Below are positions 14,232 to 31,386 of a stretch of DNA of 64,000 bases, piece after piece. Position 1 is the first letter of the stretch, and each line of letters starts with the position of its first letter. The stretch lies in sequence record LT603033; one strand, 5' to 3'. The DNA comes from Escherichia phage vB_Eco_slurp01. Below the pieces are notes generated by a model. The model made no database searches and was not told the DNA's origin. It worked only from the letters and a program-made list of their open reading frames with translations. Both the position numbers and the translations under genes were made by a program.

Positions 14232-14259
14232 TTGCAAACTATGTTTAACGGCGTATAAT
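14232..14259 (+). promoter_or_regulatory. Early promoter, sigma70-like
   Basis: TTGCAA N16 TATAAT. Confidence 0.7.
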
Positions 14260-14272
14260 GTTTTACATCGAG

Positions 14273-14291
14273 AGCGGGAACACTTCCCGCT
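14273..14291 (+). other. Promoter-proximal hairpin (AGCGGGAA-CAC-TTCCCGCT)
   Basis: 8-bp stem immediately downstream of predicted start site; member of the recurrent hairpin class. Confidence 0.6.
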
Positions 14292-14314
14292 ACATATTAC
14301 GAGAGATTAAAACG

Positions 14315-14677
14315 ATGGCGACTCAAATCACTAAAATTATTGCTAACCTGGTTAACTTTCGCGACGAGATGAAAGATCTTCCGGCAGAAACGGTAAAAAT
14401 TCACATTGCAGCTTATCGGGAACTTATTGCAATGTTACCTCTTAAGCGTGAACAATACGCCGCTACCGTGATGCTTGATGCGATGATCCATAAGATGATC
14501 GCCAGTGATTTAACGATGGTTTATCAGTATATGGGCGAAAATTTCGCGGTGTATAGTAAACCAGTACCAGGAATGGAAAGTACAGAAGTATTACACGGTT
14601 TAAATTTAAAACAAGATGCATGGGATAATATGCCTCGTTTCCTGGTATGGGCTGACAGTGGCAAAATTTACGAATAA
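14315..14677 (+). CDS. Hypothetical early protein (120 aa)
   Basis: ORF 14258..14677 trimmed: upstream ATG lies inside the -10 element; GAGAGA RBS before MATQITK. Confidence 0.7.
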   Translation: MATQITKIIANLVNFRDEMKDLPAETVKIHIAAYRELIAMLPLKREQYAATVMLDAMIHKMIASDLTMVYQYMGENFAVYSKPVPGMESTEVLHGLNLKQDAWDNMPRFLVWADSGKIYE

Positions 14678-14691
14678 GTTTAATAAAGTAC

Positions 14692-14719
14692 TTGCAAACT
14701 ATGTTTAATGGCGTATAAT
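14692..14719 (+). promoter_or_regulatory. Early promoter
   Basis: TTGCAA N16 TATAAT; hairpin GTGGGGAA-TAG-TTCCCCAC at 14732-14750. Confidence 0.7.
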
Positions 14720-14770
14720 GTTTTACATCAGGTGGGGAATAGTTCCCCACTATATAAGAGGATTAAAAAA

Positions 14771-15010
14771 ATGGCTAAATCAAAAATGTTCTTAGGTCAC
14801 AAAAACAAAACTCATTGGAATGTAAGCCTTTGGATTAATAACGATGAATCATTATACCGGTTGGCCCTGGACTTTATTGCCGCCAATACTAATCGCAATG
14901 ATGCGGCCCGTCATATGATGTTATTTTTAGAACAGACTGGACAAGATAAAACACCGGACGGATTCAAATATAGCACTACTGCGATCCGTGCGGCAATGGT
15001 TGGAATGTAA
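14771..15010 (+). CDS. Hypothetical early protein (79 aa)
   Basis: ORF 14708..15010 trimmed to ATG after AAGAGGA RBS. Confidence 0.7.
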   Translation: MAKSKMFLGHKNKTHWNVSLWINNDESLYRLALDFIAANTNRNDAARHMMLFLEQTGQDKTPDGFKYSTTAIRAAMVGM

Positions 15011-15032
15011 TAGAATAGAATTTATTTAAAGT

Positions 15033-15061
15033 ACTATTGCACGGGGATAGTACTTTATAAT
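15033..15061 (+). promoter_or_regulatory. Degenerate early promoter (TATAAT present, -35 region shortened)
   Basis: Aligns with the promoter at 26483-26511 but has a deletion in the spacer. Confidence 0.4.
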
Positions 15062-15098
15062 AGTGTTTTATTCATACACCAACGATAAGGGCAACAGC

Positions 15099-15365
15099 AT
15101 GAATATTAAGTATTTTGCGACGCGTGAACAAGCTCGGATCGCCGCACGCCAGGACGGGGCAACGTTTAAAGATATGGGCGTACAATCGGAACGTGGTAAA
15201 CGTTGGGCCATTGTAAAGCGTAGTACCGCCAGATCATTACAGTACTGGTTAGCGGCCTTAAAAAGACCCGATAGTGTATCGCGACGAGTGGTAGAAATAA
15301 AGCTCGACCGAAAGGGCAACCGCGTGACCGTGTACCGTACTAAAAAGATTGCAGTACTTGAATAA
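15099..15365 (+). CDS. Hypothetical early protein (88 aa); paralog of 26556..26951
   Basis: Trimmed ORF; shared KYFATREQARIAAR...FKDMG...RKGNRVTVY. Confidence 0.7.
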   Translation: MNIKYFATREQARIAARQDGATFKDMGVQSERGKRWAIVKRSTARSLQYWLAALKRPDSVSRRVVEIKLDRKGNRVTVYRTKKIAVLE

Positions 15366-15373
15366 AAAGTACT

Positions 15374-15400
15374 TGCAAACTATGTTTAAAGGCGTATAAT
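15374..15400 (+). promoter_or_regulatory. Early promoter
   Basis: TTGCAA N15 TATAAT; hairpin GCGGGAA-CTC-TTCCCGC at 15415-15431. Confidence 0.7.
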
Positions 15401-15452
15401 GTTTTACATCGAGAGCGGGAACTCTTCCCGCCTATAACCTGGAGTAATAAAA

Positions 15453-15683
15453 ATGACTAATATGTATATGACTGAAGTTAAAACCGTAAAAGATACTACC
15501 ACGAATAAAACTACTTACTTACAGCGGATCTGTGGTGTATGGCAACGTATCAGCAAATCAAAGTACTTTAAATTAACATCATATGCAAACCGTTCGGATT
15601 CATTCAGTACTGAAATAAAAGGTAATAAAGTACACCAATACGGCACTTATTATTATTATAGCCTGGACGCGATTGCAGTATAA
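15453..15683 (+). CDS. Hypothetical early protein (76 aa)
   Basis: ORF track; GGAG RBS. Confidence 0.65.
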   Translation: MTNMYMTEVKTVKDTTTNKTTYLQRICGVWQRISKSKYFKLTSYANRSDSFSTEIKGNKVHQYGTYYYYSLDAIAV

Positions 15684-15713
15684 GCAGTTTACAAATCTTT
15701 ACAATTGCCGGTA

Positions 15714-15742
15714 TTGACTTATTTTGTCAGTACTGGCATAAT
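15714..15742 (+). promoter_or_regulatory. Promoter driving a non-coding stretch
   Basis: TTGACT N17 CATAAT; no ORF over 25 aa follows. Confidence 0.5.
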
Positions 15743-15744
15743 GT

Positions 15745-15925
15745 ATTCATTGGCAGATAAGCCGTAGCCCATAGGGTGCGGGAGTGTATCTATAGAAAAA
15801 GTAGTTTATTACAGTTACAATTGTGCACCCGGTGGGTTAGCTGTTGTCATGGGGTATATTATGCCAGTACTGGATAGTGCTGTCAATACCTTTTTACTAT
15901 TCAGTACTGAAAACTATTTTTAAAA
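15745..15925 (+). ncRNA. Candidate small non-coding RNA
   Basis: Promoter-driven, no ORF; contains inverted copies of the CCCAYNGGGTGC motif that could pair. Confidence 0.3.
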
Positions 15926-29807: not shown

Positions 29808-29824
29808 CTAAAACAAAGTATAAT
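29797..29824 (+). promoter_or_regulatory. Early promoter
   Basis: TTGCAA N16 TATAAT; hairpin GGGGGAG-ATATC-CTCCCCC at 29835-29853. Confidence 0.7.
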
Positions 29825-29872
29825 GTTTTGCATAGGGGGAGATATCCTCCCCCACTAATAAGGAGTACTAAA

Positions 29873-30097
29873 ATGGCTAACTTTGATGAACTGATGCGGG
29901 AAGTAGCTAACCTGGCAGAAGAGAAGAAATCATTCGATTCTATCTATAACACCGCTTACAGTGATTCAGTACTGGCATGTACTCAGGATCAAAAAGATGA
30001 ACTAATCGCCACATATCATGAAGCATGGAAGTACTACCGCCAATGGGAGAAAGAAGAAAGCGAGTCTACCATCAACGGCATCAATAATCTAATCTAA
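29873..30097 (+). CDS. Hypothetical early protein (74 aa)
   Basis: ORF 29828..30097 trimmed to MANFDELM after AAGGAG RBS. Confidence 0.7.
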   Translation: MANFDELMREVANLAEEKKSFDSIYNTAYSDSVLACTQDQKDELIATYHEAWKYYRQWEKEESESTINGINNLI

Positions 30098-30115
30098 AGT
30101 TTTATTTCAGTACTA

Positions 30116-30144
30116 TTGACATAGCTTGATAGTACTGATATGAT
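30116..30144 (+). promoter_or_regulatory. Early promoter (no-hairpin class)
   Basis: TTGACA N17 TATGAT. Confidence 0.65.
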
Positions 30145-30172
30145 AACTTTACTAACTACAAGGGGAAACATC

Positions 30173-30430
30173 ATGGAACAATTCACACAATATCGGGTAA
30201 ATCCTCAAGCTATGGCCTACGTAGAAGACCATAAAACGTTACCAGTACTGCAACCAGTTAAAGGCCATATCTATCGTGCGATGGCGTGGAGTACTGCCCA
30301 GGATGGCTATAAAACCGTTGCCGTTGGTATGTACTGCGGTAATGGTGAATGGTTTGATCCAAATAATCCGGTAGCAATTGACAGTACTGAAAAAATGAAA
30401 TGGGCCGACTACATCGAAGATATTTCATAA
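30173..30430 (+). CDS. Hypothetical early protein (85 aa)
   Basis: ORF 30140..30430 trimmed to MEQFTQY. Confidence 0.65.
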   Translation: MEQFTQYRVNPQAMAYVEDHKTLPVLQPVKGHIYRAMAWSTAQDGYKTVAVGMYCGNGEWFDPNNPVAIDSTEKMKWADYIEDIS

Positions 30431-30437
30431 AAACTAT

Positions 30438-30465
30438 TTGACAGTACTAACCAGTAATGTATAAT
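30438..30465 (+). promoter_or_regulatory. Early promoter
   Basis: TTGACA N16 TATAAT; hairpin 30478-30498. Confidence 0.7.
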
Positions 30466-30520
30466 GTTTTACATAGAGCGGGGGAATAGTTCTCCCGCCA
30501 ATAGTTTGGAGTAAAACATT

Positions 30521-30721
30521 ATGTCTATCGCTCTCGCCCTGGTTGAAGTACTGAAAGAAGCTAAAGCCAACCTTATCGATGTACAGATTAAGGAATTGCA
30601 AAATGGTTTAATCGGCTGTACTTGTACCGCTGGTGGAGCGGCAGACTATCGAGAACACGAATCACTAGAATCGTTGGTCCGGTATCTTACAATCATCGTA
30701 GAAGATTGGAGAATCATCTAA
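30521..30721 (+). CDS. Hypothetical early protein (66 aa)
   Basis: ORF track; TGGAG RBS. Confidence 0.7.
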   Translation: MSIALALVEVLKEAKANLIDVQIKELQNGLIGCTCTAGGAADYREHESLESLVRYLTIIVEDWRII

Positions 30722-30725
30722 CAAA

Positions 30726-30870
30726 AAAGAATAAAAAAGGGATTGACTCCGGTCAGTCCCTTTGCTATTATATACGCATAGACAAAAACTAGCCCACAGG
30801 GTGCATAGGTGTATCTAAAATATATAGTTAATAACGGTGAGTAACTATCTGCTGGTGGAGTGAAAACTAT
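30726..30870 (+). repeat. Repeated intergenic module, copy 4
   Basis: Hairpin + TTGACT-N17-TATTAT, CCCACAGGGTGC, Chi octamer at 30851. Confidence 0.7.
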
Positions 30871-30882
30871 TAATAAAAAGTA

Positions 30883-30913
30883 TTGACAAAGTATATCAGT
30901 ACTGCAATAATGT
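30883..30913 (+). promoter_or_regulatory. Promoter (weaker -10)
   Basis: TTGACA then CAATAAT region. Confidence 0.45.
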
Positions 30914-30964
30914 ATCTCGTAGGGCGGCAATGGTGCGACGGTCCACAAAGTTAGGAGATTCAAA

Positions 30965-31297
30965 ATGAGTACTTCAATCGCTATCGTTAAAGCTTTCATC
31001 CGTACCAATGTTTCATCTGTATTCATCGACGGTCTGGATCGGGAAGTAGAATACTCAATCATTATCGCACAGACTGCAAACGGTGCTCGGTATATCCTTA
31101 ATGATAGTGAAGCAAATCACTACTACTTCACTAAAGCTACTGGCTTTAAACGCATCGATGCTGACGTAGTATACGCTAAGATGAATAAGCTGGTAGACAA
31201 GATTAACGCGAAAGGTACTATCGATTTACAGTACTGGACCGAAACCGATCCAGAATATGGATCTCACCGCTACCTGAATCCAGGTATTAAAATGTAA
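30965..31297 (+). CDS. Hypothetical protein (110 aa)
   Basis: ORF track; TAGGAG RBS. Confidence 0.7.
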   Translation: MSTSIAIVKAFIRTNVSSVFIDGLDREVEYSIIIAQTANGARYILNDSEANHYYFTKATGFKRIDADVVYAKMNKLVDKINAKGTIDLQYWTETDPEYGSHRYLNPGIKM

Positions 31298-31304
31298 AAA
31301 GTAC

Positions 31305-31332
31305 TTGCATAGTACTTAGAATCAAGTATAAT
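31305..31332 (+). promoter_or_regulatory. Early promoter
   Basis: TTGCAT N16 TATAAT; hairpin 31347-31364. Confidence 0.7.
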
Positions 31333-31386
31333 GTTTTACATAGAGAGGGGGAAATGGTTCTCCCTCCTAAATTAAGGAGTTTTATC

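Follow-up and report, generated by a model that had tools for sequence, protein, structure and literature searches.

Sigma-70 promoters followed by a covarying hairpin recur through the terminal repeat of an Asteriusvirus coliphage

A cassette of about 100 bp that joins a strong promoter to a short hairpin ahead of the ribosome-binding site (RBS) recurs 23 times in Escherichia phage vB_Eco_slurp01 (LT603033), an Asteriusvirus (PBECO4/121Q group, ~350-kb jumbo coliphages). We analyzed a 64,000-nucleotide stretch of this phage (hereafter the window), for which a preliminary description had reported promoters followed by hairpins with co-varying stems. The observation is confirmed and is quantitatively strong. 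Below we describe the cassettes, the evolution of their stems, the promoters without a hairpin and the setting and spread of the cassettes, and then weigh what the hairpin may do.

Results

Anatomy and census of the cassette

Each cassette begins with an A/T-rich stretch (AAAAAGTAC/ATAAAAAG) and continues with a near-consensus sigma-70 promoter, a start region of the form ..TTTACAT.., the stem-loop, an A-rich linker of 5-10 nt, a Shine-Dalgarno (SD) sequence and an ATG (Table 1). The stems are 7-9 bp long (in one copy 6 bp plus a bulge) and close loops of 3-5 nt. Stem onset lies 8-14 nt past the -10 hexamer in all 23 copies, and 17-23 nt separate the end of the stem from the start codon. The preliminary description had thus placed the short stem-loop correctly, and all the stems it quoted are present (AGCGGGAA/TTCCCGCT, GGGGAGAA/TTCTCCCC, GAGGGGAA/TTCCCCTC and GGGGGAG/CTCCCCC). 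Minimum free energies (MFEs) of the hairpins range from -7 to -16 kcal/mol. Two representative leaders, folded from the inferred transcription start, each form a single hairpin that leaves the linker and the SD open (z = -3.1 and -4.0 relative to shuffles).

We searched all 64 kb with an unfiltered covariance model of the cassette and retrieved exactly 23 copies, which without exception lie on the + strand, from 14254 to 31384. A scan that began with hairpins found 38 G/C-rich ones on the + strand of the window; 20 of these 38 are located 14-26 nt ahead of an SD and start codon, and 19 of the 20 have a promoter 5-20 nt upstream. For comparison, the hairpin test is passed at 2-4% of random positions. 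The count rises to 26 copies when three long-leader variants are included.

The loops take 24 different forms. The 5' arm is 93% purine and the polarity is fixed, with the G-run first; 47 distinct hairpins keep a GGGRA/TYCCC core and vary in the remaining pairs. The 8 nt past the stem hold on average 1.7 T residues and at most three across the 23 cassettes, and none of the 23 hairpins was called by a terminator scan of the region. Because no U-tract follows the stem, we excluded the possibility that the hairpin is an intrinsic terminator, as had been proposed from the missing T-run. Canonical terminators are found elsewhere in the region (for instance at 17292, 18168, 18894 and 26974), about 5-7 for ~40 genes.

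Covariation and evolution of the stem

The proposal that selection acts on the structure and not on the stem sequence was borne out by a covariation analysis of 49 distinct hairpins from eight loci, anchored on the loop with 11 nt on each side. We adopted the loop-anchored alignment because sequence-driven alignments shift hairpins with 3-nt loops one column out of register; MAFFT and covariance-model alignments were dropped, as a slid control scored almost as well. Only hairpins with 6 or more pairs were chosen, which biases the inner positions but not positions 7-8 or the sharp outer boundary. Counting from the loop, pairing is 98-100% at pairs 1-7 and 71% at pair 8 (49% in shuffles), and falls to chance at pairs 9-11. 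The covariation score reaches 0.495, whereas shuffles score 0.208 +/- 0.015 (0/500 reach the observed value) and slid partners no more than 0.21, and each of the inner pairs changes on both sides. Folding the arms with their own partners yields -12.1 kcal/mol, compared with -9.9 kcal/mol for chimeric arms (0/5000 permutations). Joining 5' and 3' halves of different hairpins costs ~2 kcal/mol within Asteriusvirus and ~4 kcal/mol over all loci; such chimeras still fold because of the shared GGGRA/TYCCC core. The covariation of the stems is real but partial.

Comparison of 54 orthologous cassette pairs from the same lineage showed that the stem diverges least per site (3.8%), followed by the promoter (6.6%), the 5' tail (8.1%), the linker and SD (8.3%) and the loop (9.8%). 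Stem and non-promoter flanks differ with p = 7e-6 (Fisher test), for pairs that are not independent. Orthologous genes (coding identity 82-99%) often carry a different hairpin in another phage, with pairing always kept: GTGGGGAA/TTCCCCAC is replaced by GCGGGGA/TCCCCGC, and GGGGAGAA/TTCTCCCC by GGGAAGTA/TACTTCCC. For the gene behind cassette 8 (W19102), the ortholog in 121Q and UE-S1 has a leader with no hairpin.

Mismatches within the stems carry some information on the strand. Internal G.T pairs outnumber A.C pairs by 9 to 3 (p = 0.07), and one-sided stem changes between orthologs gave 8-9 G.T and 2 A.C. Position-wise scoring of ortholog stems is confounded by register shifts and gaps (of 10 apparently lost pairs, at least five are alignment gaps) and was kept for this count only. 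The excess of G.T over A.C weakly favours a structure at the RNA level, on the sense strand.

Promoters with and without the hairpin

Between 14.0 and 31.5 kb, 21 + strand sites match TTGACA-N16-18-TATAAT at 11 or more of the 12 positions, compared with 0.6 +/- 0.7 in shuffles and 3 on the - strand. At 10 or more positions there are 39-43 on the + strand, or about one per 400-450 bp. The dense array of strong promoters given in the preliminary description therefore stands, but the hairpin accompanies 23 of them (26 with the long-leader variants) and not nearly all. The leader is structured at 15 of 15 AGTAC-TTGCAN promoters, as expected if there were two regulatory classes; TTGACA promoters, however, are mixed (hairpin in 8 of 18), and hairpin status differs between orthologs. 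The three promoters that had been singled out as a minority class (19633, 22467 and 30116) do lack the hairpin, but about 17 promoters do so, and they are of at least three kinds: ~10 have a short unstructured leader, five stand ahead of a conserved non-coding box, and three are the long-leader variants.

Two of the long-leader variants form tandem promoter units. In each, a first promoter and a branched leader are followed by a second, hairpin-less promoter and then the gene (15931-16076, with the second promoter at 16049, and 25326-25469, with the second promoter at 25442). The hairpin-less leaders (at 16076, 25469, 22495 and others) read ACATCAAC(C/T)ACTGA..AAGG, and the hairpin leaders read ACATCAAG-stem-loop-ACTAAGAGG. 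A hairpin-less leader thus looks like a hairpin leader from which the stem-loop is precisely absent, and the hairpin behaves as a discrete insert.

Two further elements are associated with promoters. The palindrome AGTACT occurs 264 times in the whole window where base composition predicts 21.6 (12-fold, compared with 2.7-fold for the next palindromic hexamer), and CAGTACTG occurs 55 times against 0.7 expected. AGTACT is dense at 12.3-31.9 kb and 48-57 kb and nearly absent at 32-36 and 40-48 kb. Palindromes of this type lie in promoter spacers (AGTACTGTATAAT), overlap the -35 box (AAAGTACTTGCAA), flank the -35 box of 19633, 22467 and 30116, and also occur in coding regions; they are frequent in RaK2 promoters too. 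The second element is a conserved non-coding stretch of ~55 nt, with no open reading frame (ORF), into which nine strong promoters lead (+ strand 15714, 21599, 23261, 25207 and 30743; - strand 13898, 13683, 15886 and 17422). It consists of a variable small hairpin and then (A/G)CCCAC(A/C)GGGTGCA...TGTATCTAT, with a predicted G.U-rich hairpin GGGUGCA/UGUAUCU. The element is conserved between Asteriusvirus and Alcyoneusvirus (in the RaK2 locus at 5506, 13521 and 15395), has no Rfam match and may represent a family of small RNAs or leader elements.

Outside the cassette region, promoters 33936 and 37160 have a common upstream motif (ATGAAACAC-TTGAC) that recalls the divergent -35 motif TGAAACG reported for CBB and GAP32.

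The cassettes lie in a long terminal repeat

The window matches Escherichia phage BF17 at 96% over 20-26 kb and vB_Ec-M-J at 93%. Between 13.0 and 32.5 kb, no single relative reaches 80% coverage in one piece (25-80%, in many pieces), and because of this patchy coverage we consider the interval hyperplastic. In the alignment with vB_Ec-M-J, window position 12519 pairs with nt 1 and position 32468 with nt 21777, and the vB_Ec-M-J record has a direct terminal repeat (DTR) annotated at 1-21525. A DTR of ~21 kb has been verified experimentally by restriction digests in the Asteriusvirus fEgEco12 (PMC13070987). The alignment and the fEgEco12 repeat together place the interval of the cassettes entirely within the terminal repeat.

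The genes of this repeat are small and nearly all annotated as hypothetical; the few with names include a DksA-like protein and an acetyltransferase. Small early genes crowd the repeat, which presumably enters the cell ahead of the rest of the DNA, and host RNA polymerase is the accepted view for early transcription in this clade (CBB paper, PMC5259590, and PA5oct paper). An Rfam scan of 12-33 kb had a chance-level miRNA (E = 0.44) as its sole match, and a tRNA scan of the whole window found none.

Perfect 60-bp tandem repeats (3.3 copies, each with CAGTACTG) at 12314-12509 stop ~10 bp short of where the terminal repeat is inferred to begin, and 53-bp repeats (2.6 copies) at 14061-14200 stand immediately ahead of the first cassette; both may serve as terminus or packaging signals. 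On the - strand just beyond the terminal repeat, six ORFs of 369-433 aa, possibly paralogous, follow one another (258-7443), and a 121Q gene neighbouring this set is annotated as RCC1-like. The + strand of 32-64 kb has no ORF of at least 350 aa across 32 kb, and G+C falls to 30-34%.

Spread and exchange of the cassettes

The same layout with other stems is present in Klebsiella phage RaK2 (GGGGATACA/TGTATCCC, GGGAATGAA/TTCATTCCC), Erwinia jumbo phage Hallingskeid, the rV5-like phage FV3, Phapecoctavirus nepoznato (phAPEC8-like) and IMG/VR jumbo contigs of ~350 kb (GGGTAAGC/GCTTACCC). Our cassette model was too specific for the rV5-like and RaK2 loci, where a generic scan for promoter plus hairpin was used instead. 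As a control, unrelated IMG/VR viral contigs that share the -10/start 18-mer by chance had any hairpin in only 2 of ~70 cases. At megablast sensitivity, one representative cassette (W22136-22240) had no match in 5,426 complete E. coli genomes. Hairpins identical to those of the window (GGGGAGAA tag TTCTCCCC and AGCGGGAA tag TTCCCGCT) were seen at positions 8052 and 2720 of the nepoznato locus and 7536 and 10047 of the FV3 locus, from unrelated coliphages of ~140-150 kb. This identity suggests an exchange of cassettes between phage families.

Exchange is also visible among close relatives. Against three of them, 34 of 53 unique homology breakpoints fall inside cassettes (p = 5e-10), whose share of the region is 24%. 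Relative to the end of the -10 hexamer, the starts of alignments are clustered at -46 to -32 and their ends at +9 to +54, and adjacent alignments often overlap inside a cassette. Such a pattern is what recombination leaves behind when repeated cassettes lie on either side of single genes. The entire cassette would provide the homology for the swap, gain and loss of genes among related phages, as described for the promoter-early stem-loop (PeSL) cassettes of the T4-like phages RB49/phi1, T4/PST and KVP40/nt-1 (Arbiol et al. 2010, PMC2839356; Comeau et al. 2014, PMC4122927). PeSLs are ~100-bp units with a sigma-70-type early promoter, a G-run/C-run stem-loop, an SD and an ATG; they are abundant among orphan genes and have been implicated in modular shuffling (PMC2839356, PMC4122927). 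Termination or attenuation at the stem-loop and the formation of mini-circles are further traits of PeSLs.

Table 1. Positions of the cassettes, other promoters and the terminal repeat in the window. Loops are in lower case.
Feature	Position	Strand	Promoter	Hairpin or other detail	ATG
Cassette 1	14232..14317	+	TTGCAA-N16-TATAAT	14273-14291 AGCGGGAA cac TTCCCGCT	14315
Cassette 2	14692..14773	+		14731-14751 GGTGGGGAA tag TTCCCCACT	14771
Cassette 3	15373..15455	+		15415-15431 GCGGGAA ctc TTCCCGC	15453
Cassette 4	16733..16815	+	TGGACA-N16-TATAAT	16774-16792 AGCGGGAA tag TTCCCGCT	16813
Cassette 5	16988..17068	+		17028-17047 GGGGAGAA atgg TTCTCCCT, terminal G.U	17066
Cassette 6	17456..17532	+		17492-17510 TAGGGGAG cgg TTCCCCTG	17530
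Cassette 7	17772..17853	+	TTGATA-N16-TACAAT	17814-17830 GGGGGAG cgg TTCCCCC	17851
Cassette 8	19075..19159	+	TTGCAT-N16-TATAAT	19115-19134 AAGGGGAA acgg TTCTCCTT, G.U pairs	19157
Cassette 9	19393..19472	+		19433-19452 GGGGAGAA atga TTCTCCCC	19470
Cassette 10	20906..20987	+		20948-20963 GGAGAA atag TTCTCC, extends to GT..AC with CC bulge	20985
Cassette 11	21135..21215	+		21175-21194 GGGGAGAA atga TTCTCCCC	21213
Cassette 12	21722..21803	+	TTGAAA-N16-TATAAT	21763-21781 AGGGGAAA cgg TTTCCCCT	21801
Cassette 13	22156..22237	+	TTGACA-N16-TATAAT	22196-22214 GGGGAGAA tag TTCTCCCC	22235
Cassette 14	23852..23923	+	TTGACA-N17-TATAGT	23891-23909 AGGGGAA acatc TTCCCCT	23921
Cassette 15	24473..24552	+		24513-24532 GGGGAGAA atga TTCTCCCC	24550
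Cassette 16	25782..25868	+		25824-25842 GAGGGGAA tgg TTCCCCTC	25866
Cassette 17	26052..26139	+		26094-26113 GAGGGGAA acgg TTCCCCTC	26137
Cassette 18	28608..28690	+		28649-28668 AGGGGGAA atgg TTCTCCCT, internal G.U	28688
Cassette 19	28913..28996	+		28953-28971 GGGGAGAA tag TTCTCCCC	28994
Cassette 20	29462..29543	+		29502-29522 GCGGGGGAA tag TTCTCCCGC	29541
Cassette 21	29797..29875	+		29835-29853 GGGGGAG atatc CTCCCCC	29873
Cassette 22	30438..30523	+		30478-30498 GCGGGGGAA tag TTCTCCCGC	30521
Cassette 23	31305..31389	+		31345-31366 GAGGGGGAA atgg TTCTCCCTC	31387
Long-leader variant	15931..16052	+	cassette type	~85-nt branched leader closed by AUCAGG/CCUGAU; MFE -19, z -1.5	
Long-leader variant	18239..18360	+		related leader; structure no better than shuffles, z 0.09	
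Long-leader variant	25326..25445	+	cassette type	~85-nt branched leader closed by AUCAGG/CCUGAU; MFE -19.2, z -2.3	
Hairpin-less promoter	16049..16076	+		leader ACATCAACTACTGA...	
Hairpin-less promoter	19633..19661	+	AGTACT flanks -35 on both sides; extended -10 TGgCATAAT		
Hairpin-less promoter	22467..22495	+	kind of 19633		
Hairpin-less promoter	22738..22765	+			
Hairpin-less promoter	25442..25469	+			
Hairpin-less promoter	26483..26511	+			
Hairpin-less promoter	27265..27293	+			
Hairpin-less promoter	27541..27569	+			
Hairpin-less promoter	30116..30144	+	kind of 19633		
Promoter, degenerate leader hairpin	30883..30911	+		GGCGGCAATGGTGCGACGG; compare GGCGGCA atgg TGCCGCC in FV3, nepoznato	
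12-bp hairpin, RB49-type PeSL placement	21592..21619	+	21599	over -35 and spacer, then T-rich stretch	
12-bp hairpin, RB49-type placement	25200..25227	+	25207	as at 21592	
12-bp hairpin, RB49-type placement	30736..30763	+	30743	as at 21592	
Direct terminal repeat	12519..32216 (ends approximate)	+		contains all cassettes; from alignment to the annotated DTR of vB_Ec-M-J	

Discussion

Function of the hairpin

The sequence TATAAT-(G/A)TTTTAC-A is conserved and provides a C-1/A+1 dinucleotide 8 nt past the hexamer. By sigma-70 geometry, we infer that transcription starts at the A of the conserved CAT; the C-1/A+1 start dinucleotide resembles that of T5 N25. Counted from this position, the unpaired 5' tail ahead of the stem is 1-7 nt long (median 5), and the hairpin would be transcribed as nucleotides ~+6 to +26 of each early mRNA, that is, between transcription start and RBS, where the preliminary description had put it. 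With a ribosome on the start codon, the leader would consist of a 5-nt tail, the hairpin and a stretch of 17-23 nt covered by the ribosome, with almost no single strand left, which is consistent with a stabilising or insulating role.

We ranked the possible functions as follows: a cis-acting leader, a read-through barrier or attenuator, tuning of translation, a protein-binding tag and, last, a role in the DNA alone. On balance, and by a modest measure, we favour the hairpin as a cis-acting RNA leader structure that serves mRNA stability or insulates the RBS. Selection would maintain it as an RNA structure acting in cis on the messenger. It would leave the short leader almost wholly structured or covered by ribosomes, and so may extend, or make more uniform, the lifetime and output of early mRNAs, whether these start at the cassette's own promoter or read through from upstream. 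Given the natural hairpin-less leaders and a presence that varies among orthologs, the effect would be modulatory and not essential.

Several points weigh against this reading. The searchable literature yielded no transcript data for the clade, and for this reason the start site is only inferred. Protection by ompA-type 5' hairpins reportedly needs no more than ~2-4 unpaired nucleotides, according to work from the Belasco laboratory, and the predicted tail would be at or beyond that limit, which would speak against simple 5'-end protection. The hairpin is dispensable for a given gene, as the W19102 ortholog in 121Q and UE-S1 and the ~17 promoters of the region without it illustrate. The G.U excess is small and in part shared by descent, and covariation mostly cannot separate RNA from single-stranded DNA, since in DNA an inverted repeat has the same symmetry on both strands. 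The descent of all copies from one cassette, rather than constraint, may account for the fixed position of the hairpin. Finally, RNase E reportedly passes simple stem-loops as it scans (PMC9943677), which weakens the idea that the hairpin is a barrier to that scanning.

The strongest competitor, though we rate it as unlikely, holds that the hairpin acts on transcripts arriving from upstream genes, either as a read-through attenuator or as a barrier to 3'-to-5' exonucleases that protects the upstream cistron, as proposed for PeSLs. In RB49/phi1, one PeSL stem-loop cut downstream lacZ expression as strongly as rrnB T1 (PMC2839356), and the stems described here are of the AG(n)A-loop-TC(n)T type of the T4/PST PeSLs. 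With ~5-7 canonical terminators for ~40 genes, read-through must be common; a hairpin per ~500 nt suits a barrier, which needs no exact distance from a 5' end. An attenuator, however, is difficult to reconcile with the low T content past the stem and with the textbook terminators that the phage uses elsewhere. An efficient terminator would also kill the cassette's own transcript, because the hairpin is downstream of its own promoter's start, and the RB49 stem-loop sits inside the promoter instead of the leader.

It is less likely still that the hairpin chiefly tunes or insulates translation, with a stem at the 5' edge of the ribosome footprint that sets 30S loading and keeps read-through sequence from pairing with the RBS. 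The narrow stem-to-ATG distance and the predicted unpaired linker and SD suit this explanation, as does the fact that leaders with and without the hairpin are otherwise one module in which it looks like an optional tuning insert. Since the hairpin-less leaders have the narrow spacing too, the spacing belongs to the cassette as such and not to the hairpin, and inspection by eye revealed no alternative pairing of the C-rich arm with the SD.

The hairpin could also be a tag for a phage or host protein (for example a repressor that shuts off early-gene translation, an antiterminator or a factor protecting phage mRNAs while the host is shut off) or a DNA operator, which we regard as quite improbable. 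The GGGRA/TYCCC core and the fixed polarity of the arms across 47 distinct hairpins are what a tag would require, and the hairpin marks one temporal class of genes. The loops, however, take 24 different forms and the stems largely differ between genera, a variability too great for the protein-binding operator suggested in the preliminary description. Moreover, Rfam contains no match to the hairpin, a hairpin-less leader can take its place for one gene, and reading the leaders, without a boxA pattern search, revealed nothing like boxA; a G-run paired with a C-run is also simply the cheapest stable short stem in a genome of 37% G+C. On a more speculative note, and with about the doubt that attaches to the translation hypothesis, the leader hairpin could be a regulon-wide tag on the first mRNAs of the terminal repeat, read by a factor or blocking a nuclease, so that these messages are spared during host mRNA destruction or jointly shut off at the early-to-middle switch. 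Horizontal exchange would have spread such a tag through four or more unrelated lineages of large, virulent phages of enterobacteria.

A structure that matters in DNA only, whether a cruciform or single-strand hairpin for cassette recombination or an N4-like hairpin promoter for a phage polymerase, seems very improbable. Breakpoints do cluster in the cassettes and the loops are their most variable part, but the breakpoints spread over the whole 100-bp homology (-46 to +54) instead of focusing on the stem, and G.T is commoner than A.C. The single-stranded DNA hairpin promoter raised in the preliminary description is contradicted by the near-perfect sigma-70 promoter directly ahead of each hairpin in a clade thought to rely on the host polymerase, and no gene for a giant virion polymerase was found in a search limited to the 64-kb window. 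Least credible of all is a functionless passenger of a cassette that spreads by duplication and recombination: all copies are homologous and hairpin presence varies between orthologs, but the stems evolve at half the rate of their flanks, pairing survives double changes, and the hairpin persists across genera with different sequences.

Whichever function applies, the cassettes are compact, very strong natural expression units that combine promoter, structured leader and RBS. Dozens of natural stem variants with matched hairpin-less versions offer ready material for testing how the structure of a 5' leader bears on the fate of mRNAs in E. coli, and the cassettes mark an early terminal-repeat gene set in genomes where >80% of the genes have no known function.

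Comparison with known systems

In several known systems a hairpin or a terminal gene block resembles part of what we describe. The ompA 5' untranslated region and the T7 gene 10 leader too have a sequence-independent hairpin near the 5' end, with the RBS close behind and little single-stranded leader. That structure matters and not sequence is likewise indicated here by the covariation and by stem conservation. The differences are that the predicted 5' tail, mostly 5-7 nt, would be longer than the few nucleotides reportedly tolerated there, and that our element is multi-copy and mobile.

Blocks of host-takeover or pre-early genes lie in the terminal redundancy of SPO1 and the first-step-transfer region of T5. 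As in those blocks, a long terminal repeat is densely packed with small genes that have strong host-type promoters and RBSs; the genes are unrelated, and neither system is known to have a conserved leader hairpin. A short hairpin near the start of early transcripts is shared with lambda nut/boxB and the N4 hairpin promoters. Unlike lambda, the cassettes have no conserved boxB loop among their 24 loops, nor was a boxA-like sequence seen on the reading of the leaders mentioned above. Unlike N4, stems and loops are not conserved and a full sigma-70 promoter precedes each hairpin.

The nearest known kind is the PeSL cassette. Our cassettes share its sigma-70-type early promoter with an A/T-rich upstream region and an adjacent, stable G-run/C-run stem-loop, whose AG(n)A-loop-TC(n)T form is the T4/PST consensus. 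They also share the SD and start codon at the 3' end of ~100 conserved bp, and the occurrence in many copies amid small orphan genes of a hyperplastic region (here 23 in 17 kb and 0 elsewhere in 64 kb). As for PeSLs, indels and replacements between close relatives start and stop in the cassettes. However, the RB49 stem-loop is mostly between or over the -35 and -10 boxes, whereas it is in the transcribed leader in 23 of 23 cassettes here; the RB49 placement occurs only at three other promoters (21592, 25200 and 30736), with a terminator-like hairpin over the -35 box. The RB49 stem-loop has been read as a terminator for upstream transcription, a role that would be self-defeating for a stem in the leader, where the U-tract is absent as well. 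In addition, the cassettes described here fill a direct terminal repeat, and their carriers are not Straboviridae. The papers on RaK2, CBB, phAPEC6, rV5, PA5oct and fEgEco12 report RpoD-like promoters at most, and a leader hairpin in none. The idea behind PeSLs, of mobile promoter cassettes that drive gene shuffling, thus extends to Rak2-like jumbo, rV5-like and phAPEC8-like phages.

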